Shown here piece after piece: positions 4,542 to 52,109 of a DNA stretch of 64,000 nucleotides. Position numbers and translations under genes: made by a program. Every line of letters begins with the position of its first letter. The stretch's first letter is position 1. This DNA is from Elusimicrobiota bacterium (GTDB lineage: Bacteria; Elusimicrobiota; Elusimicrobia; FEN-1173), in assembly GCA_016706425.1 (NCBI GenBank), contig JADJJR010000001.1, forward strand, positions 701,973 to 765,972. The letters are read 5' to 3'. Below the pieces are notes generated by a model. That model worked only from the letters and a program-made list of their open reading frames with translations, ran no database searches and was not told the DNA's origin.

Positions 4542-4577
4542 TTTAAAAGTGGCGCCAACCCGGAGAGGGATGCTGTT

Positions 4578-4784: not shown

Positions 4785-4894
4785 TTCCATTTGGATTGGG
4801 TGGGGGGAATTGAAAGCGGTGGATCTTCTGGACCTCGCCCGGCGGGCGCTCAAGGCCGCGCGGGTCGTGGCCCCCAGCGCCCGACCGAATCCGC

Positions 4895-4900
4895 TATAAT
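4895..4900 (+). promoter_or_regulatory. candidate -10 box (TATAAT) upstream of ppx
   Basis: A perfect TATAAT lies 12 nt before the ppx ATG at 4913. No clear -35. This would give a very short leader. Confidence 0.25.
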
Positions 4901-4912
4901 CCCGTCGAGAAC

Positions 4913-28900: not shown

Positions 28901-29359
28901 GTGACGACCGTCGCCCGCAACCGGCGGGCGCACCACAAATACGCCATTCTGGAAACGTTTGACGGCGGCCTCGCGCTGACGGGGCCGGAAGTCAAATCGG
29001 TCCGCGCCGGAGAGCTTCATCTGGAGGACGGGTTCGGTCGTGTGGAGAACGGCGAGATCTTCCTTTGGAACGTGCACATCAACCCGTACCGGGCGGGTTC
29101 CCTGCACGTGACCCAGGAACCCACGCGCAAGCGGAAGATCCTCCTCCACAAAACCGAGATCGGACGGATCTTGGGGAAGTTGACGACCAAAGGCTTGACC
29201 CTGGTGCCGTTGGAAGTCTATTTTTCAAAAACGGGTTTCGCGAAGGTGAAGCTCGGCCTCGCCAAGGGGAAAAACGCCCCGGACCAACGCGAGGACCTCA
29301 AGCGAAAGGACCTGTCGCGGGAAATGCGGCGGCAGTTTTCGGGGAAACACCGGGTTTAA
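28901..29359 (+). CDS. smpB: SsrA-binding protein SmpB
   Basis: 152 aa, GTG start. Motifs KYAILETFDGGLALTGPEVKS and C-terminal basic tail. No tmRNA gene follows. Confidence 0.85.
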   Translation: MTTVARNRRAHHKYAILETFDGGLALTGPEVKSVRAGELHLEDGFGRVENGEIFLWNVHINPYRAGSLHVTQEPTRKRKILLHKTEIGRILGKLTTKGLTLVPLEVYFSKTGFAKVKLGLAKGKNAPDQREDLKRKDLSREMRRQFSGKHRV

Positions 29360-29376: not shown

Positions 29377-29514
29377 GGAGGGATGGGAGAGCGGGCGCCG
29401 TGTGCCAGTGGCACACGTTTGGCGCGGGTCGACAGACCCCGGGTTTGCCTCCTGGCCCGACATTTTCGGGCCGAGGCAAACAATCCGCCGCACGTTATTA
29501 GCGTGCCAATTTTT
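29377..29514 (+). pseudogene. disrupted tRNA-Ser 5' fragment. It shares the first 18 nt and the AATCCGCCGCAC segment with the adjacent intact tRNA-Ser, is interrupted by an ~87-nt insertion, and has no 3' half.
   Basis: GGAGGGATGGGAGAGCGG is repeated verbatim 138 nt upstream of the intact gene. The insertion is the GTGTGCC-hairpin repeat element. Confidence 0.5.
29395..29481 (+). repeat. structured repeat element, copy 1 (GCGCC-[GTGTGCC-AGT-GGCACAC]-GGCGC closing stem, then GGGTC-GACA-GACCC and a long hairpin GTTTGCCTC..GAGGCAAAC)
   Basis: The second copy at 41497-41580 conserves the GTGTGCC/GGCACAC hairpin and the CCGAC..TTTT..CCGAGG loop motif. The closing stem covaries (GCGCC/GGCGC versus GTCCC/GGGAC). 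Confidence 0.55.
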
Positions 29515-29604
29515 GGAGGGATGGGAGAGCGGTTGAATCCGCCGCACTCGAAATGCGGTAGGGGCGCAAGCTCCTCGTGAGTTCAAATCTCACTCCCTCC
29601 GCCA
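29515..29604 (+). tRNA. tRNA-Ser(CGA), type II
   Basis: Colinear with E. coli tRNA-Ser(CGA): acceptor GGAGGGA/TCCCTCC, discriminator G, anticodon loop CTCGAAA, long variable arm, T-arm GTGAGTTCAAATCTCAC, encoded CCA. Confidence 0.8.
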
Positions 29605-31178
29605 TATGTGAAACCCCCCTCGGGGGAAGAAAGGCCCAACGGCGAATCGTCGTTGGGCCTTTCGCTTGTACGGGCGGAGTCGTCCGACAGCGTCCGAGTC
29701 GTCGTCCCCGGTCGAAATCCAACCCTCAAAGCGGTCGAATTCTTTCTATTTCCCGCGCTCCGCGCGGCGGTGGCGGAGTCCAACACCATCGGACTTTTAC
29801 CGTCGAGCGGACGGGCGGAGTCCCCGTCCCGCCCGGTCGTCCTCCCCGCGTCAACCTCCGGGGCGGGACCGTCCACAACGAAGTCCACACCGATGCTCTT
29901 TTTCGAATAGCGGACCCTTTCGATCCACTTCCGAACCAAAAGGGATTTCTCGATTCCGGTTGTGCGCGCACATGCCTTTACAAATGCTTTGAGGTTTTTT
30001 TGGAGCAATTCGGGGGTAAAGTTGTAAACATCTGGTAGCGGTTCAACACCACTCCCCCTGGGGCGAGTGGTTTGATTTTGATGGGAATTCACCAAGTTTT
30101 TCAAATATTCGGTGTCCTCCGAAATCCGTAGGAGGTTGGAATAGACCGCGTCATGGAGGCGCTCCGCGCCGATTTGGCGGGTGCCGCAAGCGTCCTTTCC
30201 ACTGTGTCCCACCTTCGAACATCGGTAATAGTAGTACTTGTGCCCGTTTTTCTTGAGCTTGCTTGAAAACGCCACGCCCATGACGGAACCACATTCCCCG
30301 CATTTGATGATCCCGGCGAAAGGAAGGTGGGAATGGGTTTCCGTATGGAAGCGGGGCGATTCGGTCATGAGCTTTTGAACGTGGTTGAACAAGTCCTCCG
30401 AAATAAGGGGCGGGTGCTGGCCGGGATGAATTTTCCCCTTATGGACGATCTTCCCGGTGTAGACGTTTTTCCTCAACATTTGCCAAATGGCTGAATCCCC
30501 GAAAGGCTTCCCACGGCGGGAGAGAATCCCCTTTTCCTTAAGCATCCGGAGGATCGCCCGGATGGAGCGGGTTTTGACGTAGGTTTCAAAGATTTGTTTG
30601 ACGATCTGGTCGCGCGGCGGGTCGATGACGAGGGCGGCGTTTTCCGCCTTGTATCCATAAGGAGGTTGGCCGCCATGATAGAGGCCGCGCTTGACCCGCT
30701 GGATCACCTTATCTTTCACGCGCTCGGAAGCGAGCTCCCGCTCGAACTGAGCGAAGGTCAGCATGATGTTGCGAAGGAGACGGCCCGAGGGCGTGGAGGT
30801 GTCGAACCGCTCCGTCACCGAAATGAAAGAAGCCTGATACTTTTCAAGGAATTCGATCATCTGATAGAAGTCGCGGGGGGAGCGGGTTAGACGGTCGATC
30901 TTGTAAGTGATGACAAGCTGGATTTGCCCGGCCCGGATATCATCGATCATCCGTTTGAGGGCCGGGCGGTTCATGTTGGCCCCGGTGAAACCGGGGTCGG
31001 AATAGACATTAAAGATTTCAAACCCCTCCTGGCTGGCGATGAAGGAGCGGATGCGGTCCTCTTGGGCCTCGCAAGAATTGAACTCGACCTCGGCTTGGGC
31101 GTCGGTGCTTACGCGGGTGTAGATGGCGCAACGGGTGATTTTCCGTTCATTTTCCGTCGGGGTGGTTAAAGCTTGCAT
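29583..31178 (-). CDS. large serine recombinase (resolvase catalytic domain + recombinase domain + zinc-ribbon). The C-terminal ~120 codons run through the inverted repeat into tRNA-Ser and are probably not genuine.
   Basis: Catalytic AIYTRVSTDAQ, recombinase-domain motifs, zinc ribbon CGECG..C..C. GGAGG SD. The body is lower in GC than the flanks. Confidence 0.8.
   Translation of the reverse strand: MQALTTPTENERKITRCAIYTRVSTDAQAEVEFNSCEAQEDRIRSFIASQEGFEIFNVYSDPGFTGANMNRPALKRMIDDIRAGQIQLVITYKIDRLTRSPRDFYQMIEFLEKYQASFISVTERFDTSTPSGRLLRNIMLTFAQFERELASERVKDKVIQRVKRGLYHGGQPPYGYKAENAALVIDPPRDQIVKQIFETYVKTRSIRAILRMLKEKGILSRRGKPFGDSAIWQMLRKNVYTGKIVHKGKIHPGQHPPLISEDLFNHVQKLMTESPRFHTETHSHLPFAGIIKCGECGSVMGVAFSSKLKKNGHKYYYYRCSKVGHSGKDACGTRQIGAERLHDAVYSNLLRISEDTEYLKNLVNSHQNQTTRPRGSGVEPLPDVYNFTPELLQKNLKAFVKACARTTGIEKSLLVRKWIERVRYSKKSIGVDFVVDGPAPEVDAGRTTGRDGDSARPLDGKSPMVLDSATAARSAGNRKNSTALRVGFRPGTTTRTLSDDSARTSERPNDDSPLGLSSPEGGFTYGGGSEI
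29601..29957. repeat. left copy of a ~357-bp inverted repeat. It begins at the tRNA-Ser 3' end and contains the 3' end of the serine recombinase ORF.
   Basis: The reverse complement recurs at 31863-32205. Identical spurious ORFs are translated from both copies. Confidence 0.8.
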
Positions 31179-31490: not shown

Positions 31491-31862
31491 ACCATGACAG
31501 CCGCGTCAATGGGCCGCCATGTGGCCCGTTGGCGCGGCTGTTTTAATGGGGCCGTTCTTCAGCCGGGCCGGAAGGCGGGCCGATGAAAGGGGTAAGCGGG
31601 CCTCTGGATTTCGGGCGCGAAAAAGGGGTGGCTTAGCGGGCCTTGGGTTTCCGGGCGCGAAAGCTTTTCCCGCTTTTGACCCTGCTTGGGGCTTTGAATC
31701 AGCGTGGGTCACACCTTTTTTATTTTCTCCTCTTCCCGACGGGGAGAGGCCGGGAGAGAGGTTCCGGCTGTCCCTTCCCCCCAGACGGGGGAAGGGAGGC
31801 AGGGAAGGGGGCTCCTCCTGGGGGTGGGTGTGCGCGCGGTGTTGGAATCGAGAAATCCCTTT

Positions 31863-32205
31863 TGGTTCGGAAGTGGATCGAAAGGGTCCGCTATTCGAAA
31901 AAGAGCATCGGTGTGGACTTCGTTGTGGACGGTCCCGCCCCGGAGGTTGACGCGGGGAGGACGACCGGGCGGGACGGGGACTCCGCCCGTCCGCTCGACG
32001 GTAAAAGTCCGATGGTGTTGGACTCCGCCACCGCCGCGCGGAGCGCGGGAAATAGAAAGAATTCGACCGCTTTGAGGGTTGGATTTCGACCGGGGACGAC
32101 GACTCGGACGCTGTCGGACGACTCCGCCCGTACAAGCGAAAGGCCCAACGACGATTCGCCGTTGGGCCTTTCTTCCCCCGAGGGGGGTTTCACATATGGC
32201 GAGAT
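31863..32205. repeat. right copy of the ~357-bp inverted repeat. Its outer end is a degenerate tRNA T-arm/acceptor remnant (GGGATTTCAAATATCTCGCCA, in reverse orientation).
   Basis: Reverse complement of 29601-29957. Confidence 0.8.
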
Positions 32206-33719
32206 ATTTGAAATCCCGCGAAATAAGGCCCGACTTCTCTTCCCAAATATAACACATAGCTACTGGGGAACCTATCGTCAAACCGGGCAATACTACCTCC
32301 GCCCTTCTAAATTGTCGGTTGATGATGAACTCACGACCATATAGCGCCCCTTGGGTTGCCGTTCCCCTCGCCCGCGTGCGGGAGAGGGTGCCCGGACGGG
32401 GCCGGAGAGGGCGGACGTTTCCCTCGCCCCTTGGGAGAGGGTGGCCGAAGGCCGGGTGAGGGGCCGAATTTTCCGTCGGGAATTCATCCTTCACCTTTCA
32501 ATAATGAATTTGTGACGGTTATACCCGCCGCCTTCCAGCGCGGGACACACCGCGCCGCGTCGTCTTCGCTGATCACCATGACGAGAAGGGACGGCGTTCC
32601 GCGCCTCGCGTTCCCGTCGGTCACATCGCCGCATCGTCGTCACTGGCGAAGTGTGACGAGAGGATGGACAACGCCGCCGCGTCCCGTTGTCCATCCGACA
32701 TCCCGCCGCGTCGTCGTCCCTGAGTGGCGGCGTCATCGTTGGCGGGGACAGCACCCGCCGCCATGTCACGGCGGGAAGGAATCCACAGCCACACGCCGAC
32801 ATGATCCCGCCGCCCGTCCTCGTCGTCCCGCCGGATGGATGGACACCGCCGCCGGGCTTCGTCTTTGTCCCGGCCGGAGGGATAACGGCCCCGGCTGTCG
32901 TCCCCTGGAAAACCGGAAGCCACCGCCGCCGGGAGAAAACCCCCGCCCTGTTTCGTGAATCGGGGACCGGGGATCGTGATCCGGCCGCGTGGGGATGATC
33001 CCGCCCGGTGTCGTTTTCCCGACGGATGGACGCCGCCCGCCGCGAAAACCAGAAGAAGCCACCCCCCGGAAAGAAGCGAGTCCCGCGCCCGGAAAGAAAA
33101 CCCGGGCGCTTGAACATGGCCGGGGAAAAGGCGGGGCGACCGTGGCGCTCCGCCGGAAAACCCCGGCGCTGTGTCGCTGGCGGGGGAAGGGGATCATCGC
33201 CCGGGCGCTCGGACAGAAACCCCCGCCCTGTGTCGTCCGGGGGAGAGACGGGGGCGCGGCCCGGCCCGGCACGAGAGACGTGCGCCGGTCCAGGCCGCTC
33301 GGTCGTCGCTGACGGTTAAACGTCCGGTCCGGCGGAGTGACGGCACCCGCTCCGGCCTTCGGAGAAAAACCGCACCGGCCGCCGCCACGAAAAACGGGCG
33401 GCGTCGGCCGGTGCCCCGCTTCCCTCGCCGCGTCGGCGGCAGAGAACGCCGCCGCCGCACCTCGGCCCGCTGTGCTGGCGGACGGACGCCCGGCGCGCCG
33501 CACGAAAAACTTGCGCGGCGCACCTCCTCGGGGCGACTGTTTCGTTTCCGCTCCGGTCTTCGGCCAAACCAAACCACCCCCCCGCAGAGTGTCGCCCTCC
33601 CGGACTTGACCCGCCGTCGCCCGGTGCAGGTCACGCCCCCGCCCGCCGTTGGCGGGCCCGCTGTCCGGGCCGGGGGGCCGGGTCGTTGGCCGGTGGCCTT
33701 TTGGGGGGGCGCGCGCACA
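32192..33719. repeat. 1.5-kb non-coding GC-rich structured repeat, copy A (island-left). It consists of many short hairpins whose loops carry GAAAAC / GAAAACCCC-type motifs.
   Basis: Near-identical inverted copy at 50478-51996. Every ORF inside is low-complexity (R/G/P-rich) and matches its twin, so the region is judged non-coding. Confidence 0.8.
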
Positions 33720-34112: not shown

Positions 34113-34189
34113 TTTAGCCTCCTCGGTAAAACCCTTATTACATTCCAATTTGGCATATGACATTATGGAAACTATCTTATCAGAACACT

Positions 34190-34435: not shown

Positions 34436-35422
34436 ATGACCACTACCACCCTTTCCCCCGGACTCAAAGAAGCCTTTGATAAACTAGTTCGAGGAACACC
34501 TGAAGACATAAAGGCCTATCTCACAAACATCGAAACATCCCTACCGTTAGCCGGCACAAAGGCCAATATTCATTGCCATACCATCGCACTGGACGGTCAG
34601 AAATTCCCCCGGATTAAAGATTTGGCCAAGTTCCTTTCTTTTAAAATCATCGATTATTCCATCCCCAGAAAAGAGATCGATCGTGCGAAAGAACACTTGA
34701 CCAAGACAGGATCAGCAGCAAAAGTTGCCGAGCTTCAAAAGAAAGCCGCCTCACTTTTCTCTAGCTTGGAGAAAAGTGGGGAGGGTGGTGAGCTGCTCTT
34801 GTATCTTCTGGTCGAATATTTTCTTCAACTCCCACAAGTGATGTGTAAGATGCCACTAAAGACAAATTCAGAAGTCCACTACCACGGTATTGATGGCATC
34901 CATGCATCCGTGGATAAGGACACAAATAATCTCGCGCTCTATTGGGGGGAATCGAAGCTCTATAAAGACGTGAATGCCGCGATATCTGCCTGCATTTCTA
35001 GTATCCAACCTTTCCTTGTTCCGAAAGGAGGCTCGGGCGATCCACGCGAAAGGGACCTTCAGCTCATGCGGGACAACCTGGACCTAAGTGACCCGGCACT
35101 TGAGACCGCCCTATTCAAGTATCTTGACCCTGACGATCCTATGTATAAGAAACTTGAGTACCGGGGCGCCTGCCTCATTGGATTCGATCACAAGGCATAT
35201 CCCAATACTCCGAATTCAAAGACTGAAGAGGTTGTTTGTGCGGAAATAAAAACGGGTCTTGCCGATCAAATTGCCTTTCTAAAAGAGCAAGCAATCTCTG
35301 CCTCCCTTGCCTCCTTTTCTCTCGAAGTTTTTTTCGTCCCGTTTCCGTCCGTTCAGGAATTTCGTGACGCCTTTGCTGAGGAGATAGGGACGCGTGAGCC
35401 TCCAAGATCGCCTTCTAAATAG
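34436..35422 (+). CDS. hamA: HamA-like protein (Hachiman effector candidate, DUF1837-like) with a PD-(D/E)xK-like motif
   Basis: 328 aa, low GC. Contains SGEGGELLLYLLVEYF and IDGIHASVDKD...YWGESKLYKD (D...ESK). Immediately followed by, and overlapping, a large SF2 helicase gene. Confidence 0.5.
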   Translation: MTTTTLSPGLKEAFDKLVRGTPEDIKAYLTNIETSLPLAGTKANIHCHTIALDGQKFPRIKDLAKFLSFKIIDYSIPRKEIDRAKEHLTKTGSAAKVAELQKKAASLFSSLEKSGEGGELLLYLLVEYFLQLPQVMCKMPLKTNSEVHYHGIDGIHASVDKDTNNLALYWGESKLYKDVNAAISACISSIQPFLVPKGGSGDPRERDLQLMRDNLDLSDPALETALFKYLDPDDPMYKKLEYRGACLIGFDHKAYPNTPNSKTEEVVCAEIKTGLADQIAFLKEQAISASLASFSLEVFFVPFPSVQEFRDAFAEEIGTREPPRSPSK

Positions 35423-37934
35423 CCCGGGCTTCCGTCGTCAAATGCATGCACTGACCCTTGAGTCGGTGCGTGGGAGCTTTGCAAATCTGAAACCCCCAGC
35501 CGATGCCCAGCCAGTATCACATGATTGGCAACACTTACTCCTCACAGCAAGCCTAATGGCTCAGGCTCCCAAAGAGCGACCACAAGCGACGGCACTCCGT
35601 ATCGCTCACCATTGTCTCAACTCCACAACAAATGGAACTAACCACCGCGTGGCCGCAGCAATCGTTTTGGATTTATTGACCAATAGTCCATCTATTAAGC
35701 TTGCGATAGAAAAAAACCTCCTAGACGAGGGTTTTATGGAGCGAGTTCCAGCCCCCCTACGCCTTGATGTATTTAAACGGGCCGCCGAATTTTCGGTTTA
35801 TCGCGGTGACAAAGTAATTCATCTCAATCGGTTTCAAAAAGACGTCCATAATGCCCTTGAGTCGGCAGAATGCGTCAGCATATCAGCGCCAACGTCCGCT
35901 GGAAAATCGTTTATCCTCGAAAATCATGTGAGAGAGTATGTAACTGACTCTGGGAAAAAGAACATCGTATTTGTGGTTCCCACCAGGGCACTCATACAAC
36001 AGGTCGAGACGGACTTACAATCCATTTTCTCTGATTCATCTATTAAACCGATAATCACCTCTGTCCCTCAGCTTCCACCGAACTGGGATCAACAATCGAA
36101 TATTCTTGTCTACACCCAGGAAAGACTTCAGTGGCTAATGAATGATGCTCCGGACGAGTTTAAACTTGACCTACTCATTATTGACGAAGCACAAAAGGTC
36201 GGCGATGGTGCCCGTGGGGTTCTTTTACAGCAAGCGATTGAATTGGCCACTTCAAGATGGACGAGCTGCAAGGTTATATTCTCTAGTCCCATGTCTAGCA
36301 ATCCAGAAATGTTATTTCGCCACACAGGAAAAACTGGCGTCCGAGTAATTTCAGAATTAGTCACCGTGAATCAAAATCTCATATGGGTCTCGCAGGTTCC
36401 CCGTGACCCCAAACAATGGACCGCAGAGCTTTGTGTGCATGATGGAAAGTCATTGCTTGGGACAATTTCGTTAGAACAGCGTCCGACTGACCCTCGGAAA
36501 AGGTTGGCCTTTATCGCCCAGGCCATGTCTGACGCCAGTGGCGGAACTTTAATTTATGCTAGTGGACAAGCAGATGCCGAAAAGATGGCAATCTTGCTGG
36601 CCAATTCAATTTTAGAAGATGTTATAGACTCGGGAATATCGGACTTAATAGATCTAGTTGCCAAGACCATTCATCCAAAGTATGCGCTAGTAAGCACTCT
36701 GGCTCGTGGCGTTGCTTTCCATTACGGCAATATCCCTCTTTTAATTCGCACTGAGATCGAGCGACTATTTAAGGAGGGCAAGATACGATACTTGGTTTGC
36801 ACATCAACACTCATTGAGGGGGTGAACCTCCCTGCCCGCTCAATATTTGTTCGCCGCCCAACCAAGGGGCCAGGCAGACCTATGAGTGAAATTGATTTCT
36901 GGAATATGGCGGGGAGAGCGGGAAGGCTCGGCAAGGAATTCCAGGGAAATATTATCTGTGTTGATCCTGATAACTGGGAAGAACCACCGCCACAAAAACG
37001 CGTCCGATACAAAATAGAGAGGACACTGGATAAAGTGACTTCTCAAGCCACATCACTTATAAATTTCATTGACTCCGGAAAGACGATGAAAGGGGGGCCG
37101 AGTAAAGCTGAGCTTGAGCATACTCTCGCATACCTCTTCCTTCAACACTCTCGCCATGGGTCTATTAGCAAAGGCCCCTCTGCCCCCGAGTGCGATCTGG
37201 CTATCTTGCAACAGATTGACGCCAGCCTAAAATCCGTAAGTGACAAAGTCACTTTGCCGATAGAAATCCTTACTCGCAACCCTGGGGTAAATCCATTGGG
37301 TCAACAAAGCCTTCTCAAATACTTTCTGGAATATGACGATCAAGCCACGGAGCTTATCCCCACCCTTCCTGAAAGCGACGATGCTTTTACCTCCTATGTT
37401 CGCCTTCTTAACCGCATTTGCACCCACCTGTCTGGGGACCCCACGCAGCTCAGTCCATATTTTGCGGTATTGGCAATTAACTGGATGCGTGGTTATCCGC
37501 TGTCAAGAATCATTGCCGACAATATCAAGTATTGGGGAAAGCATCCCGAGAAGAAGAAGACAGTGCCGGTGATTATTCGAGACTCAATGCGTGACGTGGA
37601 GGAGTTCGCGAGGTTTAAATTTGTGAAATATTCGGCATGCTATGTTGACATCCTGCGCTTCTATTTCCGAACAACTGGACATGCCGCCCATTTAGGACAA
37701 ATTCCAGATCTGAATATCTGGCTCGAATTTGGTGCGTCTCAGCAAACCCAGATTTCTCTGATGGGAATAGGCCTCTCTCGTCAAACAGCAATTTCTATTT
37801 CTGAGCTTATTCCGCAACATAACATGGATAGGGATGCCGCCATCGCATGGCTCAAACAATTAGATTGTGACAGCCTAGATCTCTCCCCGATCGTCATTGC
37901 GGAGTTAAAAAAGGCCCGCAGCGCTTTGTTGTAA
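35394..37934 (+). CDS. hamB: HamB-like superfamily-2 DExH/DEAQ-box helicase (Hachiman helicase candidate)
   Basis: 846 aa. Motif I APTSAGKS, motif II LIIDEAQ, motif III-like SSPMSS, motif VI MAGRAGRLG, CTSTLIEGVNLP. The GTG start overlaps the hamA end by 29 nt; an alternative ATG lies at 35442. Confidence 0.6.
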   Translation: MSLQDRLLNSPGFRRQMHALTLESVRGSFANLKPPADAQPVSHDWQHLLLTASLMAQAPKERPQATALRIAHHCLNSTTNGTNHRVAAAIVLDLLTNSPSIKLAIEKNLLDEGFMERVPAPLRLDVFKRAAEFSVYRGDKVIHLNRFQKDVHNALESAECVSISAPTSAGKSFILENHVREYVTDSGKKNIVFVVPTRALIQQVETDLQSIFSDSSIKPIITSVPQLPPNWDQQSNILVYTQERLQWLMNDAPDEFKLDLLIIDEAQKVGDGARGVLLQQAIELATSRWTSCKVIFSSPMSSNPEMLFRHTGKTGVRVISELVTVNQNLIWVSQVPRDPKQWTAELCVHDGKSLLGTISLEQRPTDPRKRLAFIAQAMSDASGGTLIYASGQADAEKMAILLANSILEDVIDSGISDLIDLVAKTIHPKYALVSTLARGVAFHYGNIPLLIRTEIERLFKEGKIRYLVCTSTLIEGVNLPARSIFVRRPTKGPGRPMSEIDFWNMAGRAGRLGKEFQGNIICVDPDNWEEPPPQKRVRYKIERTLDKVTSQATSLINFIDSGKTMKGGPSKAELEHTLAYLFLQHSRHGSISKGPSAPECDLAILQQIDASLKSVSDKVTLPIEILTRNPGVNPLGQQSLLKYFLEYDDQATELIPTLPESDDAFTSYVRLLNRICTHLSGDPTQLSPYFAVLAINWMRGYPLSRIIADNIKYWGKHPEKKKTVPVIIRDSMRDVEEFARFKFVKYSACYVDILRFYFRTTGHAAHLGQIPDLNIWLEFGASQQTQISLMGIGLSRQTAISISELIPQHNMDRDAAIAWLKQLDCDSLDLSPIVIAELKKARSALL

Positions 37935-37969: not shown

Positions 37970-38025
37970 TTGTGGCTACCTATCCCCTTGGAGTCCAAAA
38001 AACGGTACGGGCCTCCCGAGATGAG
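37970..38025 (+). repeat. direct repeat DR1 (ATTGTGGC...CCTTGGAGTCCAAAAA.CGGGCCTCCCGA.GATGA) upstream of the CHAT gene
   Basis: The same ~57-bp sequence recurs at 40290-40438, with a palindromic element inserted. Confidence 0.6.
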
Positions 38026-38079: not shown

Positions 38080-40290
38080 ATGAAAAAAATGGGCCATTTT
38101 ATGGGCCGATCGATTCTCCGCATCCCATACCGGTATATTGGTCCCCGTGTTCCAAATACTTGGCGCCCCCCTTTCCTCTCCGACAGATGGCTATTAACTT
38201 TAGGCGCATTTCCTCAGAATTTACTTTCCTTGGTCAATCCCACCGTTGCCTTCAAGATGATATCTCAACTTGCCAATACTGGCGGGCATGACTTCGGCGT
38301 TATCTATGATGAAAATGTGGCTGATTGTGTTGAAAACCAGATTGAGAACCACCATCCGATAGGCATACTGATCGTAGACACACATAAAAAAGAGGTTTTT
38401 CAGCATCTAGCGAAGATGTTTCGTAAAACCTTTATTACCGCATTTGATGATAATGTGGCTAAAGAACTAAAGGCTGATCCTGTCTGCAATGATAAATTTT
38501 TAGATTTCGATCCAATTGTTGTCGCAGATGAAATACGACGACATCTTCCAATGGCCCTAAGAATGTGTGGGGAACTGATGGGGGACCCATTCCCTGATGA
38601 AATAATTGCAAGAATGACAGCGCAATCTGAGTTGATTAAACGCGGCGATCAGAAAATGTTTTATGACTTCGCGCCATGCTATCCAAATTACTTAAACATT
38701 GCCCAGATAAAGGGGTGGGGCTGGAACGCTACCCATTTACCTAAAAAGGTTGAACATCATCGACGGATTAGGGCGGCGATAAGATCTGTCAAAAAGCTAG
38801 ACATCAATCATTGGGTTATAAACCAAGAGTCTCCCCCCCTAATCCTGACCTTTCCATTTATTAATCGTCGTGAAGAGTCGATCAAATTGCGGCGCATTCG
38901 AAACGAGATCCCTGCCAAAGCCAAGCCAGAAATTTTCAAACTAATGCGTGGCTTTAAAATCGAGCAATCAAAAGACTATCTGTGGTATTTTGACCAAGAG
39001 CTAGAATCCATCTCTGGCTTGATTATTCGAGAGAGGAGCAAACATCTTGCATTCCTCGATAACATGCAGTTCCTTCATTCAGGGTTTAGATGTTCTCCCT
39101 CTCTCCGGGTTCCGGCCAAAGGAGCCTCAATCTATGACTGTTTGGCCCCTTTTGAACCTCGGGAGTTTCGACGGAATTATTCGCCCAAAGGCGTTTTTGA
39201 AAACATTTCAAAGCTTGGTGAGAAATTGGCGGAATCGATCCCATCTGAATACTTGGATATTCTCAGGCAGGCCAAAAGACAGATGGTCGTGATAAGTGAT
39301 TTGCCAATTGAGTGGTTGATGATTGACGGAGTTCCATTGGGGTTTAAGAATGACGTATGTAGGTTGCCGGAAAATCCAGGCGCCACCGTTATGACTCAGT
39401 TCGCAGTAAACAGCCAAGTTTTCTTTTCAATTCCTTCCGAGATTTTAAAAAAGACTCTTGTCGTGTGCCTTTCGCCAGGGGACGATGAAATCTTACGCGC
39501 ATTTCAGAATATCAAACGGACGCACGAATCCAGTGGTGTGAGGTTTGAAACTTGCAGAAGCATGGAGCATCTCAAGCAGGTGGCAAACGAATCTGATTGG
39601 GACCTAATCATTTACTTCTCCCATGGATCATCAAGGAAAGACAGGTCGGACTCCGTTCTCTTAATGGATGGGGTTGAGATATCCGGTCAAGAGATTATTG
39701 ATAACGGCCTGTCTGCCCCGCTCGTTGTGCTGTTCGCCTGTGAAATGGCCCCACTGTTCGGTTATCTCAACCCCATTCCCCAGGCATTTTTCGAAGCTGG
39801 GGCCATGTCCGTGGTAACAACAATTCTTCCGATTTCAATCAATAGTGCCTTTTTGTTATGTAATCGAATACTCATCAATCTTTCGACGGCAGCAAAAACA
39901 AAGATCCATCATAATTGGCTAGATTTCGTCAGCCACAACCTCAGAACTTCACTTTTCGAGGACATGATCCATAGAATCCTCGACAGCAATAAGCTTTCCT
40001 ATTTGATCCCCAAGATGGATTATGAAAAAAAAGCGCCTTGGCTTGGAAAGGCGATGAATCCCCTGACCCGTGTTGCCGCGTATAAGGAACTATCAGAATC
40101 GGTCTCCAGATGTTTTCCAGTGGAATCGAGGCCCCGGGTCAAAGATGTGCTGGATAAGAACGAATTCTTACCAGAGGGCCTTTTCTTCAGCATATGGGGA
40201 AGAGCTGATCTAATCCCATTTGACTCATGGAGCAACAAGCTCAATATAGAACAGAACTCCGGGTATGATTCATCACAAGTTCGCGAATGA
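38080..40290 (+). CDS. CHAT-domain (caspase-like cysteine protease) protein. The N-terminal ~390 aa have no recognisable homology.
   Basis: 736 aa, low GC, GGAAGGA SD. CHAT hallmarks: DLPIEWLMIDGVPLGF, catalytic His in DLIIYFSHGSS, catalytic Cys in PLVVLFACEMA. Confidence 0.75.
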   Translation: MKKMGHFMGRSILRIPYRYIGPRVPNTWRPPFLSDRWLLTLGAFPQNLLSLVNPTVAFKMISQLANTGGHDFGVIYDENVADCVENQIENHHPIGILIVDTHKKEVFQHLAKMFRKTFITAFDDNVAKELKADPVCNDKFLDFDPIVVADEIRRHLPMALRMCGELMGDPFPDEIIARMTAQSELIKRGDQKMFYDFAPCYPNYLNIAQIKGWGWNATHLPKKVEHHRRIRAAIRSVKKLDINHWVINQESPPLILTFPFINRREESIKLRRIRNEIPAKAKPEIFKLMRGFKIEQSKDYLWYFDQELESISGLIIRERSKHLAFLDNMQFLHSGFRCSPSLRVPAKGASIYDCLAPFEPREFRRNYSPKGVFENISKLGEKLAESIPSEYLDILRQAKRQMVVISDLPIEWLMIDGVPLGFKNDVCRLPENPGATVMTQFAVNSQVFFSIPSEILKKTLVVCLSPGDDEILRAFQNIKRTHESSGVRFETCRSMEHLKQVANESDWDLIIYFSHGSSRKDRSDSVLLMDGVEISGQEIIDNGLSAPLVVLFACEMAPLFGYLNPIPQAFFEAGAMSVVTTILPISINSAFLLCNRILINLSTAAKTKIHHNWLDFVSHNLRTSLFEDMIHRILDSNKLSYLIPKMDYEKKAPWLGKAMNPLTRVAAYKELSESVSRCFPVESRPRVKDVLDKNEFLPEGLFFSIWGRADLIPFDSWSNKLNIEQNSGYDSSQVRE

Positions 40291-40438
40291 TTGTGGCATT
40301 GAACCTAGGCGCGTAGGGGACGTTGTCAACTTAGAAACTTATCCCCACCCCTTCACCTCAATTAAATTGACAACGTCCCCTACACCGCTTAGAATCCCAC
40401 TCCTTGGAGTCCAAAAATAGGGGCGGGCCTCCCGATGA
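40290..40438 (+). repeat. direct repeat DR2, starting at the CHAT stop codon. It is the DR1 sequence split by a 71-bp palindromic MITE-like element (40313-40383, 17-bp perfect inverted repeat GTAGGGGACGTTGTCAA / TTGACAACGTCCCCTAC).
   Basis: ATTGTGGC and CCTTGGAGTCCAAAAATAGGGGCGGGCCTCCCGATGA match DR1. Confidence 0.6.
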
Positions 40439-40870: not shown

Positions 40871-41496
40871 GTGTTTCCTCCTTAAGCCGCTTTCCGCGGT
40901 GTTTGGGAGAAAAGGAACAACGAGCCTGGGAGGTCCGTCACGCCGGGAGGGGTTGGATCGAAGGAAGGGGACGGGCCTCACCTTAGGCCCCGCACCATCG
41001 AGCCCCGGCGCGAAGTGGAGCGAAGCGACCGTAGAGGGTCCGGCCAGGAATAAATGGCCGAAGGCCGTTTCTTTTATGCCTGGGCCGGAGCCCTTGACGT
41101 GACCACCTCAGGCCGTTGTTAAACTGAAAAGACACAGGACGGAAAGCGCAATATCAGGATCGACCGGGCTACCGGGCGTCCTCTCCGGGAGTTTCCCCCC
41201 CGGAAAGGATTCCCACAAATCGGGAACACGGCCATGACTCCGGCCGTGAAACCTTTAAAGGTCGCGGCTGATTGTGCCTTGGGGCCCACGGGCATGGAGT
41301 CCGTGCCTTCTGCGGCGCAATGGGACCCAAGACCCAATCCGAGAGACGGTCCCTTTTCCATCTGGAGGCCGCCGGAGGCGGACCCGAAGGAAAAGCCGCA
41401 GTATGAAGCCGCCGGTTTGTGGCGGCCGACGGCCGGGCGGAACCCCGGGCCGTCCTGGGTGAGGGCTCGCAACCGAATTCTGTGGCCGGATCGAGG

Positions 41497-41580
41497 GTCC
41501 CGTGTGCCGGTGGCACACGAATGGGACGCCCGGTTGAAACCGGGCCGGTTCCGACGAGTTTTACCGAGGAGGAACAGCCG
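41497..41580 (+). repeat. structured repeat element, copy 2 (GTCCC-[GTGTGCC-GGT-GGCACAC]-GGGAC, then GCCCGG-TTGAAA-CCGGGC and a hairpin carrying CCGAC..TTTT..CCGAGG)
   Basis: Paralogue of 29395-29481, with compensatory changes in the closing stem. Confidence 0.55.
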
Positions 41581-42114: not shown

Positions 42115-43353
42115 ATGAGCAAATCGCTGTTTTTCCTTATTCTCCTGACCCTTTTGTCCCCCGTTCTCGTTCGGGGTTTGGAAGGGCCGGGGGAGGACGG
42201 ACTGACCTTGTCCGGCGTCATCGCAGAAGTAAAAGAAAAGAACCCGTCATTATCATCGGCCCGGTGGCGCTTGGGCCTGTTGGAGGCGGATGTGGCCGTC
42301 AACTCGGCGTTTCCCAATCCGAGTTTGGAAATGGAGAAATCCGCTTCCGGCGATACCGACGGGTATGAGGTGAAAGCCTCTCAGCCCGTGCCGTTGACGC
42401 GCAGGGCGGGCACGGCCCGCTCGGCGGCCCTGGCCGAATTTGAGGCGGGGAAATTGGAACTGGAAGCCCTGGAGACTGTGATCCTTGCCGAGGCCCGCAA
42501 AGCCTGGTACGCGTTGCGCATTTCCAAAGAACGCCGCCGTTTCGAGGAGACGAACCTTAAATTCTCCATGGACCTCCTCAACAAGATCGAAATGAGGATG
42601 CAGACCGGGGAGGCGGGCAACTCGGACTTGGCCCGGTCCAAGGTGGAAGTCACCCGCAGCAGGCTCCACCTTCAGGAAGCGGAGACGATGGTGAGCCGCG
42701 CGGCGGGTGAATTGAACAGTCTCATGGGCCGACGGCCGGACGCGACGGTGGCCGTGTCGGAAAACGGCGGTTTCAGCTTGGCACCCGTTCCTCCGACCCT
42801 GGAACCGTTGGAACATTACACGGCCCAGGCCCTGACCGCTCGCGCCGAGCCGCGCGCTTTGGCCTTCAGCGAAAAAGCGGCGGACCTGACCGTGAAGCTT
42901 GAAAAGGGAAAGCGCTTGCCCGTACCGGAAGTGGGGTTCATACGCGGGGTTGACGGCGGGGAGGGATATTCCAAGCTGTCTTTGGGTTTGGAACTGCCGC
43001 TCTGGTACAACAACAAGGGCGAAATTAAAATGGCGCTGGCCCGCAAAGCCTCGCTGGGTTACGAGGGAAAACGCCTGGAACTGGACATCCGGCGGGAGGT
43101 CCATGGTGCTTGGCTGGAGATGGGGCTGGCGCAAAAGCGTCTGGCCGCCGCGCGGGAAACCGTGTTCATGCTCAACGACCTCCGACGAACGGCGGCGCAG
43201 GAATATCTGTCCGGGAAAATCGGCCTGACGTCCTTTTACGAAACCAATCGGGTGTTCCTTGAGGAAAACATCAGCTATCTGGACGCATTAAAAGAATTCT
43301 ATGAGAGGACCGCGCAGTTGGATGCCGTGGTCAATAAAGGAGACGAGAAATGA
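42115..43353 (+). CDS. outer-membrane efflux protein (CzcC/CusC, TolC family)
   Basis: Signal peptide, two TolC-like repeats, 412 aa. First gene of a three-gene RND operon. Confidence 0.8.
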   Translation: MSKSLFFLILLTLLSPVLVRGLEGPGEDGLTLSGVIAEVKEKNPSLSSARWRLGLLEADVAVNSAFPNPSLEMEKSASGDTDGYEVKASQPVPLTRRAGTARSAALAEFEAGKLELEALETVILAEARKAWYALRISKERRRFEETNLKFSMDLLNKIEMRMQTGEAGNSDLARSKVEVTRSRLHLQEAETMVSRAAGELNSLMGRRPDATVAVSENGGFSLAPVPPTLEPLEHYTAQALTARAEPRALAFSEKAADLTVKLEKGKRLPVPEVGFIRGVDGGEGYSKLSLGLELPLWYNNKGEIKMALARKASLGYEGKRLELDIRREVHGAWLEMGLAQKRLAAARETVFMLNDLRRTAAQEYLSGKIGLTSFYETNRVFLEENISYLDALKEFYERTAQLDAVVNKGDEK

Positions 43354-44294
43354 AAACGTTCATCCATGTTTTGATGTCTGCGGCCTTCATCGGCCTTGTG
43401 GGTTGCGGCGGCGGAACCTCCGGCGCATCGGAGGAGCACGCCGCCGAAGCGGGAGAAAGCGGCTCGCACAACGCGGGAACCATCGAGGTGTCCGTCGAGG
43501 CGCAGAAGGAGGGCGGCATCATGACGGAAACGGTGAAACAATCCTCCGTGCCGGAAACCTTCCAGGCCATGGGCCGCGTCCTTCAGGACGCGCAAAAGCC
43601 CCACCACGTGACGGCCGGCGGACCCGGCCGGATTGAAACCCTCGCCGTTTCCCTGGGGCAGGCGGTGAACCCGGGCGACGTGCTGGCGGCCATCAAATCC
43701 CCCGCCGGGGGCCTGTCGAACGTGACCGCCCCTCACAAGGGCATCGTGACGGCGTTGCACGTCGGCGAAGGGGACTCTGTCGACGAAATGACGTTCCTTT
43801 TCACGTTGACCGACGTGGACCCGCTTTGGGGAGTGTTGGACATTCCCGAGCGAAGCCTTGGACAGGTGCGGCCGGGGCAAAAGGTTGAAATACGGACCAC
43901 GGCCTATCCGCGTGAAGTGTTCAAAGGGAAGGTCGCCTTTATTTCCCCCGAAATCGATACGGTCAGCCGCACGGTCAAAACGCGGGTGGCGATCGAGAAC
44001 CCCGCCGGGCTCATGAAGTTCGGCATGTTCATCGACGCCGCCGTGCACACCGGCGGGCATTTTCAAGGGGCCTCGGTTCGCGCCGACGCCGTGCAGAACG
44101 GCCCCACCGGGCCTTTTGTTTTCGTCAAGACGGGAGAGTCTTCGTTCGTTCCGAGGCCTGTTGAAATCGGCCGGGAGAAAGACGGCTTGGTGGAGATACT
44201 CAAGGGCGTCGCCCCCGGGGACAGCGTGGCGGTGGAAGGGTCCTTCCTGTTGAAATCGGAAATGATGAAGGAGCAGATGGGGGAGGGACATTGA
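43350..44294 (+). CDS. RND efflux periplasmic adaptor (CzcB/CusB family), lipoprotein
   Basis: Lipobox LVGCGG. HlyD-like beta-barrel and lipoyl motifs. AAGGAG SD. ATGA overlap with the upstream gene. Confidence 0.8.
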   Translation: MKTFIHVLMSAAFIGLVGCGGGTSGASEEHAAEAGESGSHNAGTIEVSVEAQKEGGIMTETVKQSSVPETFQAMGRVLQDAQKPHHVTAGGPGRIETLAVSLGQAVNPGDVLAAIKSPAGGLSNVTAPHKGIVTALHVGEGDSVDEMTFLFTLTDVDPLWGVLDIPERSLGQVRPGQKVEIRTTAYPREVFKGKVAFISPEIDTVSRTVKTRVAIENPAGLMKFGMFIDAAVHTGGHFQGASVRADAVQNGPTGPFVFVKTGESSFVPRPVEIGREKDGLVEILKGVAPGDSVAVEGSFLLKSEMMKEQMGEGH

Positions 44295-44295
44295 C

Positions 44296-47200
44296 ATGTT
44301 GAACAACATGATCGCTTTTTCCATCCGGCACAAATGGTTGGTGCTGGCGGCCGCGTTTCTGGTGGCCTGCGTGGGGGCGGCTTCTCTGCGTTCCCTTCCC
44401 ATCGACGCTTTTCCCGACGTGACCAGCGTGCAGGTGGAAATCGTCTCTACGGCGGCGGGCAAGTCCCCCCTCGAAGTGGAAAAACTGGTGACCTATCCGG
44501 TGGAGAACGTGTTGCGCGGCCTGCCGGGCCTCACGCAATTGCGTTCGGCGTCTAAATACGGGATTTCGGTGGTGACTGTCGTCTTTAAGGACGGCACGGA
44601 CCTGTACTTCGCCCGGCAACAGGTGTCCGAGCGGTTGACGGAGGCGCGCGAGAAGCTGGGGGAGGGCATTGAAATCGCCATGGGTCCGCCCGCCACGGCC
44701 ATGGGTGAAATCTACCAATACACCCTCGACACGGGACGGGAGACGGAGACGCCCGCCCAATTGACCGAGATGCGCACCCTGCAGGATTGGGTGGTGTCGC
44801 CGATCCTGAAAAGCGTGGCGGGCGTGGGCGACATCAATTCGTTCGGCGGTTTCATCAAGGAATATCAAGTGGTGGCTCTGCCGGACTTGATGACGCAGTA
44901 CAACGTGAGCCTGAAGGAGCTTTACGACGCCATCGGCCGCAACAACTCCAACGTGGGAGGCGGGTTGCTGGAATCGTCGGGGGAACAGCTCCTCATACGC
45001 GGGTTGGGGCTGATTAAAAGCGCGGCGGAGCTGGGCGACATCGTGGTGGCGGATCGCGGCGGATCGCCCGTGCTGGTGAAAGACGTCGCCCGCGTGCGGG
45101 AAGGCCATGCCGTGCGCCAGGGGGCGTCGTTCATCGACGGAAAGAAAGAGGCCGTGGGCGGCGTGGTCATGATGCTCAAGGGCGAGAACAGCCGGAAAGT
45201 GGTGGGCCGGGTTTCGGAAAAAGTGGCCGAGATCAACGCGTCCGGGGTGTTGCCCGCCGGAATGAAGATGAAAGCGTTCTACACGCGGGACACCGTGATC
45301 AACAGCAGCGTGGCCACCATCGTCAAGGCGCTGGCGGAGGGCTCCGCCATCGTGGTGGTGGTTCTCTATCTGTTCCTGCTGAGTTTCCGGGGATCGTTCG
45401 TCACCATCATGGCGCTGCCTCTGGCGTCGCTTTTGACCTTCCTGGCCATGCGGCGATTCGGGATTTCCGGCAACCTCATGTCCTTGGGCGGCCTGGCCAT
45501 ATCCATCGGCATGATCATCGATTCGACCATCATCCAGGTGGAGAACGTCTTGCACCACCTGGGCTCCCGCCGGGAGGCCGAGCACAGGGACAAGGCCGTG
45601 GCCGATGCCATCATCGAGGTGAGGAAACCGAGCATCTTCGGCGAGTTGATCATCGCGCTGACGTTCATTCCCATCCTCGCGCTGGAGGGCATCGAGGGAA
45701 AAATGTTCGGGCCGCTGGCGTTGACGGTGATGCTGGCCCTCTTCGCTTCTCTGCTTTTGTCATTGACCGTCATTCCGGCTTTGTGCGCGACGGCGTTGCG
45801 CCCCGCGCCGGACAAGGAAAGTCCGCTCTTGACCTTGGCCGGGCGTTTGTATCGCCCGACCTTGGCGTGGAGCATGGCGCACCCGAGGAAGGTGCTTTTG
45901 GCGGGAGGGCTTCTGCTGGCCGGGTGCCTGGCGCTGGTGCCGCGATTGGGGACGGAGTTCGTGCCGGTGATGGACGAAGGGTCTTTCGATATGGACACCG
46001 GCATTTTGCCCGGAGCCTCCTTGGAAACATCCGCCGGAGCGGCGAAGAAGATTGAACGGATACTCATGGAATTCCCGGAGCTCGAGACGGTGGTTTCCAA
46101 AACGGGCTGGACCGGACGGGCCATCGAGGCGCGCGGGGTGGAGAAGACGGGGTTCCTGGGCGTGCTCAAGCCGCGCAAGGAATGGAAGACGGCGAAAACA
46201 CGGGAGGAGCTTTTCGAGAAGATGCGGGAAGCCTTGGCCGTCATCCCCGGCGTGGTGATCGGTTTCAGCCAGCCGATCCAATGCCGCATCGACGAACTGG
46301 TGGCCGGGACGCGGTCGCAGTTGGCCGTGAGGCTCTTCGGCGACGACCTGGACGTGCTCACCCAAAAAGCCGCCGCCATCGCCGCCGTCCTTGGCGGAGT
46401 GCGGGGCGCGACGGACGTGGCGTTGGAACGGCAGGGCGGGCAGTCCTACGTGAACATCGAGATGAACCGGGGCATGATCTCACGCTACGGGCTGAACGTG
46501 TCCGACATCAACGACGTCATCGAAACCGCGCTGGGCGGTAAATCCGCCGGAGTGGTGTATGAGGGAGACCGGGCCTTCGACATCACCGTGAGGCTGCCGG
46601 AGACCGAAAGGAACTCCCTCACGGCGTTGGGCGAGATCGTGATCGCCTCGCCATCGGGCGCGCGGGTGCCGCTTTCCGTTTTGGCGAGCATCAAGCGCGT
46701 GGAGGGGCCGGTGCAGATCGGGCGGGAATCCGGCAAAAGGCGCATCCTGGTGGAGGCCAACGTGAGCGGCCGGGACCTGGGGGGATTCGTGGCCGAGGCG
46801 CAGGAAAAAATCCGGAAGGCCGTGCCTCTGCCGGAAGGCTATTACCTGACGTGGGGCGGGCAATTCGAGAATCAGCAGAGGGCCATGAAGACGCTGGCCG
46901 TCATCGTTCCGGCGACCATCCTGCTGATTTTTCTTCTGTTGGCCATGACGTTCAACTCCCTGCGGCAAGCCGTGTTGGTCCTTTTGAACTTGCCGCTGGC
47001 GATGGCCGGAGGCATCGCGGCGCTGTTCATCTCCGGGCTGTACCTGTCGGTTCCGGCGGCGGTGGGGTTCATCGCGTTGTTCGGGGTGGCCGTTCTTAAC
47101 GGCGTGGTGCTGGTGACGTACATCAATCAATTGCGCGCCAAAGGCATGCCCATGGAGGAGGCAATCCCCGAAGGGTGCAAACGACGGATGCGTCCCGTGC

Positions 47201-51996: not shown

Positions 51997-52109
51997 TTGT
52001 CCCGGGGCCTTGTGGCCCGCACGACGCCCCGGGCCCCGTTGGTGAATCCAAGGGCCTTTCCCGGGGGCGGTGGGCGCACGGTCCAGAACGCTCTCAACCT
52101 CACGGCCAG

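Follow-up and report, generated by a model that had tools for sequence, protein, structure and literature searches.

Two Hairpin-Rich Loci in an Elusimicrobiota Genome

The stretch of DNA analyzed here (64,000 nucleotides (nt), referred to as the window) belongs to an organism that NCBI names Elusimicrobia/Elusimicrobiota bacterium (assembly GCA_016706425.1, contig JADJJR010000001.1, positions 701,973 to 765,972 of the forward strand). This report concerns two short non-coding stretches within it, at 29395–29481 (copy 1) and 41497–41575 (copy 2). Copy 1 is located between smpB (28901–29359) and an intact tRNA-Ser(CGA) gene (29515–29604), where it is inserted between two pieces of a tRNA-Ser (nt 1–18 and nt 22–33). 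Copy 2 is found in non-coding DNA inside a genomic island, 618 nt upstream of an OEP/czcC-like gene at 42115. A reading made from the DNA letters alone (the sequence-only reading) had described a two-copy structured element at these loci, with one copy in a tRNA fragment and the other in the leader region of a metal-efflux operon. Both placements proved correct, and a base-by-base reading agrees with the description nearly throughout, with copy 2 ending at 41575. At the Rfam gathering score, the whole window contains two tRNAs and nothing else.

Read directly, both stretches consist of three adjacent hairpins (H1–H3) and are genuine copies of one module. Their parts are as follows, with P1 and P2 denoting the closing and inner stems of H1.

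29395–29425, + strand: copy 1 H1, with P1 GCGCC (29395–29399) paired to GGCGC (29421–29425)
29400–29416, + strand: copy 1 P2, GTGTGCC (29400–29406), loop AGT, GGCACAC (29410–29416)
29417–29420, + strand: copy 1 3′ bulge, GTTT
29426–29439, + strand: copy 1 H2, GGGTC-GACA-GACCC, separated from H3 by a CGG linker
29443–29481, + strand: copy 1 H3, a long two-part stem, GTTTGCCTC..GGCCCGA-CATTT-TCGGGCC-GAGGCAAAC
41497–41527, + strand: copy 2 H1, with P1 GTCCC (41497–41501) paired to GGGAC (41523–41527)
41502–41518, + strand: copy 2 P2, loop GGT, matching copy 1 save for the first loop base
within 41497–41527, + strand: copy 2 3′ bulge, GAAT
41528–41545, + strand: copy 2 H2, GCCCGG-TTGAAA-CCGGGC, a type also found in another Elusimicrobia metagenome-assembled genome (MAG; L051, position 2158)
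41548–41575, + strand: copy 2 H3, GTTCC...GGAAC, weak or degenerate

The 7-bp hairpin that the sequence-only reading gave as shared (GTGTGCC-NGT-GGCACAC) is thus identical in both copies apart from the first base of its loop, and the two second hairpins that it listed are both present. Its claim of a covarying closing stem also stands, in that two P1 pairs differ between the copies and both differences are compensatory. A further motif that it called conserved, CCGAC..TTTT..CCGAGG, is common to copies 1 and 2 and absent in other family members.

Within the 64 kb, the 19-mer CGTGTGCCNGTGGCACACG occurs at two sites only, those of copies 1 and 2, where shuffled sequences lead one to expect 0.09. 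A covariance model trained on 61 family members scores copy 1 at 58.4 bits and copy 2 at 48.8 bits, and the reverse strands of these palindromic copies at 17.7 and 13.1 bits, respectively. No third copy was detected in the window with this model, the next best match scoring 14.4 bits (E 0.39). Whether treated as RNA or DNA, and on either strand, each copy folds into three adjacent hairpins with values well below those of shuffled controls. The z-scores are −3.2 to −8.1 for DNA folds of the copies and −2.6 to −6.0 for RNA folds of slightly longer stretches around them. As a separate observation, an exact 15-nt inverted match (CCTCCTCGGTAAAAC / GTTTTACCGAGGAGG) links the H3 region of copy 2 (41558–41572) with 34118–34132, upstream of the Hachiman genes of the island; it may be a chance coincidence.

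Covariation and Conserved Features

The architecture of the module is the same across its family. H1 combines the closing stem with a 4-nt bulge on the 3′ side and a 7-bp stem that carries the cap CC-NGT-GG; H2 adjoins H1 without a gap, and a YGG linker connects it to H3, which is a hairpin of variable sequence. Invariant features include the cap (CCAGTGG), a T-rich 4-nt bulge that starts with G (GTTT), a GG that precedes P1, and a CCGAA that opens H2.

The stems vary in sequence and maintain their pairing. The pairing of P1 reaches 97.7% over 61 distinct sequences, with changes on both sides at four of the five pairs, a result above all shuffles and slid controls. Since this set had been pre-filtered for at least four of the five P1 pairs, the count was redone with sequences selected solely on the downstream CCGAA signature; all five pairs are then formed in 53 of 68 sequences and four of five in 7 of 68. 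Covariance-model searches found members in which P2 is altered and still pairs (GAGCG/CGCTC, GGGTG/CACCC, GGGCG/CGCCC, GCCTG/CAGGC, and GAACGT/ACGTTC). A second scan used a stem-free pattern, CCAGTGG-N5-GTTT-N5-SGRCCGAA, with all stem positions unconstrained. Among the 47 unique metagenome sequences obtained in this manner, P2 is fully paired (5/5) in 39, with at least 10 different stem sequences, and P1 is paired at four or more of its five positions in 38; each value exceeds all 500 shuffles. H2 covaries as well (GGGCC/GGCCC, GCCCC/GGGGC, GGCCC/GGGCC, GGGCGC/GCGCCC, and GCCCGG/CCGGGC). With more than 100 further copies, and covariation in P1, P2, and H2, the structure of the module is under selection, as the sequence-only reading had suggested from two copies.

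Distribution and Copy Number

A search for further copies, which the sequence-only reading had proposed, was carried out as an exact scan with the 19-mer (18 specified bases) against one genome per species, totaling 596 Gb. It returned 112 loci, of which ~78 have the full architecture and are regarded as true members. About 17 chance matches are predicted for 18 bases in 596 Gb, in agreement with the occurrence of unrelated matches that lack the bulged closing stem. The hosts are Elusimicrobia/Elusimicrobiota MAGs from wastewater, fen, groundwater, and enhanced biological phosphorus removal reactors, together with Lachnospiraceae and related gut Clostridia. For example, the Elusimicrobia MAG JADJZR01 possesses at least 26 copies, and four more Elusimicrobiota MAGs and many Lachnospiraceae, among them the isolate Sporofaciens musculi (L010), also carry the module. 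Matches listed for the stem-free pattern include >120 metagenome contigs, of which the named ones are mostly from the human gut, and 16 IMG/VR contigs. The total exceeds 200 loci.

The module is 65–90 nt long, non-coding, and dispersed, and its copies are intergenic in nearly all resolvable cases. Rfam has no family for it, as copies 1 and 2 give nothing relevant even at E values up to 10, and literature searches yielded nothing on the sequence or on Lachnospiraceae MITEs (miniature inverted-repeat transposable elements). The module belongs to an uncatalogued family of dispersed repeats of Elusimicrobiota and gut Clostridia, which is probably non-autonomous.

Filled and Empty Sites

Three independent comparisons of filled and empty sites, involving an IS66-like MITE, Clostridiales-1 elements, and a tandem repeat (L049), identify the module as an insertion. 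In MAG JADJZR01, it resides within a ~170-bp MITE that has 23-bp terminal inverted repeats (TIRs) starting with GTAA (GTAACTRCTCAGG..) and is flanked by 8-bp target duplications, such as GAAAACTT, AAAGGAAA, and GATGTGGA. Ends of the GTAA type and 8-bp repeats are hallmarks of IS66 (PMC11946415). Filled versions of this MITE occur at L023, L011, L061, L012, and L033, and empty versions at L002 (5806), L033 (2544), L061 (4764), and L111 (3161). The empty element reads ...GCCCCTTCGGGGCACCTTCCCCC..., and in filled elements ~65 nt comprising H1-H2-H3 replace a CAC after the hairpin GCCCCTTCGGGG. In Elusimicrobia MAGs, the MITE measures ~170 bp when filled and ~105 bp when empty, and mosaic variants with extra 48-nt inserts or alternative right halves are also seen. 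The module is therefore internal cargo of the IS66-like MITE rather than the MITE itself. The sequence-only reading had named a plain MITE as an alternative; this does not hold for the module, which has neither a TIR nor a short target-site duplication (TSD) of its own. No TIRs are present at copy 1, and copy 2 has just an imperfect 10-nt complementarity between its flanks (CCGGATCGAGG / CCGCGACCGG).

In Lachnospiraceae, several copies of the module are situated within matches to RF01699 (Clostridiales-1) that score 72.5, 60.3, and 58.6 bits, the gathering score being 48. When aligned to the RF01699 consensus, the H1 module stands out as 54 inserted nt between hairpins two and three of the model. 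The Elusimicrobia copies examined, namely L067 and the window copies (the latter tested to E 10), have no RF01699 match. Within single Lachnospiraceae MAGs, Clostridiales-1 occurs as near-identical, multi-copy units of ~250 nt with adjoining sub-threshold matches to GA-cis (RF02987), for instance at L076 (4710–4992), L020 (149–369 and 7048–7264), L034, L056, L066, and other Lachnospiraceae loci. Being near-identical and multi-copy within single MAGs, Clostridiales-1 behaves like a dispersed repeat.

The third comparison is paralogous. At L049 in MAG JADJZR01, one unit of a tandemly repeated, GC-rich region (4560–5340) holds a 108-nt version of the module, and the neighboring unit is empty. The translation of this repeat resembles the C-terminal part of the recombinase open reading frame (ORF) of the window's island, as well as the ORF at 31709–32494, with 55% and 51% identity over 70–80 amino acids.

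Duplicated tRNA Gene Ends

The immediate surroundings of copy 1 are composed of the following parts.

29377–29394, + strand: pseudo-tRNA piece A, identical to tRNA-Ser(CGA) nt 1–18 and a direct repeat of 29515–29532
29482–29493, + strand: pseudo-tRNA piece B, identical to tRNA-Ser nt 22–33
29494–29514, + strand: 21-nt junction that links the pseudo 5′ half to the intact tRNA and forms a terminator-like hairpin with piece B
29515–29604, + strand: intact tRNA-Ser(CGA), with the second direct-repeat copy as its 5′ end and the attachment point of the island as its 3′ end

Because piece A corresponds to nt 1–18 and piece B to nt 22–33, copy 1 replaces only nt 19–21 of the D-loop. The first 18 nt of tRNA-Ser occur on both sides of it, as direct repeats 120 nt apart. 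A check for TSDs around the window copies, as suggested in the sequence-only reading, found none; the tRNA-Ser repeat takes their place at copy 1. That reading had recognized the tRNA fragment and missed the recurrence of this layout at other tRNA genes. For instance, tRNA-Pro(CGG) of another species (L051) is preceded by a leader plus nt 1–19, the module, nt 22–35, and a 16-nt junction, followed by the leader and the intact tRNA. At a tRNA-Arg gene (L078), nt 1–19 are followed by two modules, nt 20–24, and the intact tRNA, and at another tRNA-Pro gene (L112), nt 1–19 are followed by a truncated module. On the 3′ side of tRNA genes, oppositely oriented modules adjoin an inverted copy (reverse complement) of the tRNA 3′ end that extends as far as the T-stem. 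Here the trailer and tRNA end occur in tandem, as three units at the L051 tRNA-Pro, two in L112, and three at a tRNA-Trp gene (L012). The same arrangement recurs at tRNA-Gly in a gut metagenome contig (L172).

Direct repeats of tRNA ends are accordingly present at six Elusimicrobiota loci, including the window, and at one gut contig. At each of these sites, GG(G) immediately precedes the junction at the start of the D-loop or T-loop, and the tRNA is still present in intact form. Roughly 9 of ~45 Elusimicrobia copies are within 400 nt of a tRNA gene, as compared with a rough baseline estimate of ~1% for random genomic positions and ~10% for random intergenic positions.

Three possible origins of the duplications each agree with some of the observations: a long staggered cut to which insertion is coupled; insertion into a copy of a pre-existing tandem tRNA duplicate, with that copy then decaying; and integrase-type recombination of a small circle that carries a tRNA end. 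A primer-binding site of the retroelement type was rejected, as the duplicated pieces hold genomic leader or trailer sequence and are thus derived from DNA.

The Copy 1 Locus

A terminator-like hairpin (29490–29506) followed by AATTTTT is formed by piece B and the junction. It reads GCACGTTATTAGCGTGC and then CAATTTTT (29490–29514), is partly made of the pseudo anticodon stem, and ends directly before the first base of the intact tRNA-Ser. Another terminator-like site (29338–29354) overlaps the end of smpB. A tmRNA or permuted tmRNA beside smpB was considered and set aside; ARAGORN detects none, and the same layout is found at tRNA-Pro and tRNA-Arg elsewhere.

Ten loci of the same species, in nine NCBI MAGs and a Logan contig, were recovered with the exact SmpB sequence. 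Copy 1 is present at all 10 loci, is identical in nine and scores slightly lower in one, and is kept whether or not an island lies downstream. Both window copies look like old, immobile, fixed relics.

Copy 2 and the Serine-Recombinase Island

The island that contains copy 2 is 22.4 kb long; its integration site is the tRNA-Ser(CGA) 3′ end, and the junction reads ...CTCCGCCAT|. It spans 29605 to ~52000, as the flank of island-free strains (TTGTCCCGGGG) recurs at window position 51997. Its genes include:

29583–31178, − strand: large serine recombinase
34436–37934: Hachiman HamA and helicase
38080–40290: CHAT protein
42115–47385: czcCBA

A helix-turn-helix gene and genes for DUF6573, a methyltransferase, and DUF1016 are also present. 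The island is missing from L113, L116, and L122, in which a TonB-dependent receptor gene follows the tRNA, and different cargo occupies the same tRNA-Ser site in L118, L120, and L121. Copies 1 and 2 were considered as the attL and attR sites of the island and rejected. Copy 1 is present in island-free L113, L116, and L122, and the island boundaries are at 29604/29605 and ~52000, with copy 2 internal; the copies are hence not the attachment sites.

Copy 2 is found in every contig that has this czcC gene plus enough upstream sequence. Two independent metagenome contigs with the same czcC gene, L127 and L128 (positions 1–72), both start 25 nt upstream of copy 2, as would be expected if assembly had stopped at a repeat; the module may interrupt contigs in this way. 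The left flank of copy 2 (41484–41500, TGG-CCGGATC-GAGGG) is shaped like the reverse complement of a tRNA 3′ end, with CCA, a 7-nt acceptor strand, and a 5-nt T-stem strand, comparable to the tRNA-Trp units of L012; no matching tRNA and no Rfam match was found for this flank.

The island has a number of internal repeats. A 373-nt inverted repeat (98%; 29600–29972 / 31829–32201) brackets the serine recombinase gene, and a 1.5-kb, near-100% inverted repeat (32192–33717 / 50478–52000) relates the recombinase-adjacent region to the far end of the island. An att-like sequence, TTCAAAT(C/A)TC..CGCCAT, occurs three times, and the efflux genes are reversed in strain L120. The inverted repeats and the att-like triplicate suggest recombinase-driven inversion or nested insertion. 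In addition, a 34-nt direct repeat (88%; 37986–38019 and 40402–40435) brackets the CHAT-domain gene, as if this were a separate cassette within the island.

Selection on DNA or RNA

The orientation of the module relative to its flanking genes was counted from crude ORF calls at two ORF-length thresholds. Between co-directional genes, 24–27 copies are in sense and 13–17 in antisense orientation; another 12–13 lie between convergent genes and 13–14 between divergent genes. All four configurations therefore occur, and there is no orientation rule. ORF clustering at 214 loci found no recurrent protein family beside the module save orthologous housekeeping genes. Of 720 stem pairs, 95% are of the Watson-Crick type, and G·T pairs (13, or 1.8%) compare with eight A·C pairs, with no strand asymmetry. 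A transcribed structure usually tolerates G·U pairs on its own strand. The vicinity of the two window copies has no match to a sigma-70-type promoter, and the terminator-like sites that were found all lie outside the module. Taken together, the orientation, gene, G·U, both-strand folding, and promoter data favor selection on folded DNA or on both strands, similar to REP (repetitive extragenic palindrome) and IS200/IS605-type elements. The sequence-only reading had offered two candidates, a small non-coding RNA and a REP/MITE-like mobile repeat. The latter fits the multi-copy, nested nature of the module, its filled and empty sites, and its occurrence in every orientation, while the former finds little support.

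Two specific RNA structures were also tried. A self-cleaving ribozyme or K-turn was rejected in view of no Rfam match and no tandem G·A pairs after the bulge. Pseudoknot pairing of the GUUU bulge with the CCGAA / AAAC segments was dismissed by inspection, as the bulge and loop variants do not covary.

Interpretation and Alternatives

The two loci are probably copies of a non-coding, three-hairpin mobile module of ~65–90 nt that constitutes non-autonomous, selfish DNA. A mobile repeat fits its multi-copy nature, its filled and empty sites, its nesting, its presence in every orientation, and its lack of an associated gene. According to the proposed mechanism, the module would insert, or would have inserted in the past, directly 3′ of GG at or beside stem-loops, with the D-loop or T-loop of tRNA gene copies and the hairpins of other repeats as its targets. 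Following insertion, it would be passively carried and amplified by its host, whether the IS66-like MITE, Clostridiales-1 elements, or the tRNA-Ser genomic island. Given that the stems covary and the loop and bulge bases are fixed, a trans-acting enzyme might recognize the module as folded single-stranded DNA. We infer this enzyme, the preference for GG and stem-loop targets, and selection at the level of DNA over RNA from the patterns described above.

Several observations weigh against this explanation. Just two copies are seen in the 64 kb of the window organism, TIRs and TSDs that belong to the module itself are lacking, and neither window copy has a TSD or shows a present/absent polymorphism. 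No transposase, integrase, or RAYT-like gene is near the copies in ~1.8 Mb of flanking sequence, so that the mobilizing activity is purely inferred. The account of a mobile module also leaves the origin of the tRNA-end duplications unexplained. In addition, there is a weak excess of sense orientation at one ORF-length threshold (27 versus 13, p = 0.04) that is gone at the other; two phyla share conserved loop and bulge bases, and one strand has UUCG- and GAA-type loops, which would fit a structured RNA as well; and the Lachnospiraceae copies lie in an Rfam-curated candidate small RNA (sRNA) family.

The last three points bear on the possibility that the module is a functional structured RNA domain, transcribed from the + strand as part of a small RNA or as a cis element for stability, processing, or protein binding, which is selected at the RNA level and merely carried by MITEs and other repeats. 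Covariation in all hairpins, the invariant CCAGUGG loop, GUUU bulge, and CCGAA, the strong fold z-scores, and the co-orientation of both window copies with their downstream genes are in line with such a domain, as are the above-threshold RF01699 matches around the Lachnospiraceae copies. Clostridiales-1 was reported as a candidate non-cis-regulatory RNA (Weinberg 2010; PMC2864571). However, the module is an insertion relative to the Clostridiales-1 consensus and not part of it, it is nested in a MITE and in broken tRNA halves, and no Rfam family matches the window copies at E values up to 10. The sense bias is not robust and all four orientation classes are represented, neither a sigma-70-type promoter match near the window copies nor a terminator-like site of the module's own is found, G·U pairs are no more frequent than A·C pairs, and the reverse strand folds equally well. 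An RNA domain is a doubtful alternative. Less likely still is that the copies are remnants of miniature integrative elements mobilized in trans by a tRNA-targeting site-specific recombinase, in which the module would be a conserved arm of the att site, the tRNA repeats the att cores, and the tandem units the products of accretion. Direct repeats of tRNA termini, 11–36 nt long with or without flanking sequence, do bracket module inserts at seven tRNA genes, and the tandem triplets downstream of the L051 tRNA-Pro and at the L012 tRNA-Trp resemble accretion. Moreover, the window tRNA-Ser is itself a recombinase hot spot, and L112 (2501–2814) has the classical pattern of a T-loop-to-end repeat around a 226-nt insert. 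Such remnants are difficult to reconcile with the location of most copies far from any tRNA, with those in a DDE-type MITE and in Clostridiales-1 elements, and with repeats that match the local tRNA each time (Ser, Pro, Arg, Trp, or Gly). No integrase adjoins these units, and copy 1 is independent of the island, whose serine recombinase joins at the tRNA 3′ end and not at the D-loop. The 5′-side units would require an element that carries the 5′ part of a tRNA with a crossover in the D-loop, and we know of no description of such a sublocation.

Least probable by far is that the 19-bp near-palindrome is a double-stranded binding site of a dimeric regulator, or a sigma-54-type promoter element, with the window copies as operators. 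The sequence CGTGTGCCAGTGGCACACG is a near-perfect palindrome, copy 2 is upstream of the efflux operon, and TGGCAC-N5-TGGC in copy 1 resembles the sigma-54 −24/−12 consensus, which is TGGCAC-N5-TTGC. Yet stem sequences vary freely with pairing kept, which is unexpected for an operator read by sequence; an asymmetric 4-nt bulge and two further hairpins are conserved as well; and dozens of copies per genome occur in unrelated contexts. Copy 2 lacks the −12 GC, and most Elusimicrobia copies have it displaced by one base; with neither the spacing nor this GC conserved, direct reading of the sequences led to rejection of a sigma-54 promoter.

Returning to the mobile module, a bolder extension can be put forward tentatively and is considered rather improbable. 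It holds that the element is structure-targeting and homes to the first tRNA loop encountered from either end (D or T), and to other stem-loops, with insertion coupled to duplication of the tRNA terminus such that an intact tRNA survives. So far, tRNA-loop-directed insertion with duplication is a pattern without a mechanism. If true, this mode of insertion would have no described counterpart among bacterial IS (insertion sequence), MITE, REP, and integrase-borne elements, and it would operate in Elusimicrobiota as well as Firmicutes. The common layout at tRNA-Ser, tRNA-Pro, and tRNA-Arg, and the related one at tRNA-Trp and tRNA-Gly, hint at an undescribed form of insertion into tRNA genes that spares the genes.

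More generally, the results add an uncatalogued, cross-phylum family of structured repeats in which the module nests inside other mobile elements, and they suggest that at least part of the Rfam candidate sRNA family Clostridiales-1 behaves as a dispersed repeat. They also serve as a warning for annotation, as covariation by itself does not make a hairpin element an RNA gene.

Comparison with Known Systems

The module is closest in kind to hairpin repeats of the REP/REPIN type, which are mobilized by RAYT (Y1 HUH) transposases, and of the PATE (palindrome-associated transposable element) type; its carriers resemble modular MITEs. Like REPs and REPINs, its H1 is an imperfect, bulged palindrome of ~31 nt that is extragenic and present in many copies in either orientation. 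The module is sometimes arranged in tandem or inverted doublets (L038 and L016), has no TIR or TSD, and maintains its stems by compensatory change, which is compatible with recognition of folded single-stranded DNA. In contrast to REPs, its 5′ flank is just (N)GG and not a GTAG-type tetranucleotide, its unit is three hairpins rather than one, and no RAYT gene flanked by copies was seen in the ~1.8 Mb of flanks, in which no small ORF recurs beside the copies either. REP families are usually species-specific, whereas the core of the module is found in two phyla, where it is often nested in other repeats and in tRNA gene fragments.

With PATEs, which are miniature derivatives of IS200/IS605, the module shares a non-coding sequence of ~100 nt, subterminal hairpins instead of TIRs, a lack of target duplication, and insertion beside a short fixed target, being always directly 3′ of GG. 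It differs in that no TnpA/TnpB partner and no sign of the IS200/IS605 guide-tetranucleotide logic was found, and in that PATEs do not feature tRNA ends as long direct repeats. The architecture, a mosaic of short hairpin modules, is also that of modular MITEs, which are IS66-derived here and have BOX, Correia, ERIC, and Nezha as general parallels. The module is likewise small, non-coding, and present in many dispersed copies; unlike a MITE, it is cargo, and the window copies have neither GTAA TIRs nor an 8-bp TSD.

Clostridiales-1 RNA (RF01699) is similarly hairpin-rich, without known function, and found in gut Clostridia, but the window copies fall below its gathering score and H1 is foreign to its consensus. 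The resemblance to tRNA-targeting integrative elements and their miniature derivatives lies in terminal tRNA repeats that flank the insert, in an intact tRNA, and in tandem accretion. Unlike those elements, module inserts are only 100–230 nt long and have no recombinase, the 5′-side cases duplicate the 5′ end of the tRNA up to the D-loop, and the module is found at five tRNA species as well as far from any tRNA. On balance, the module is best filed within the known class of non-autonomous structured repeats, of which it is an unusual member by virtue of its nesting and its duplicated tRNA termini in two phyla.

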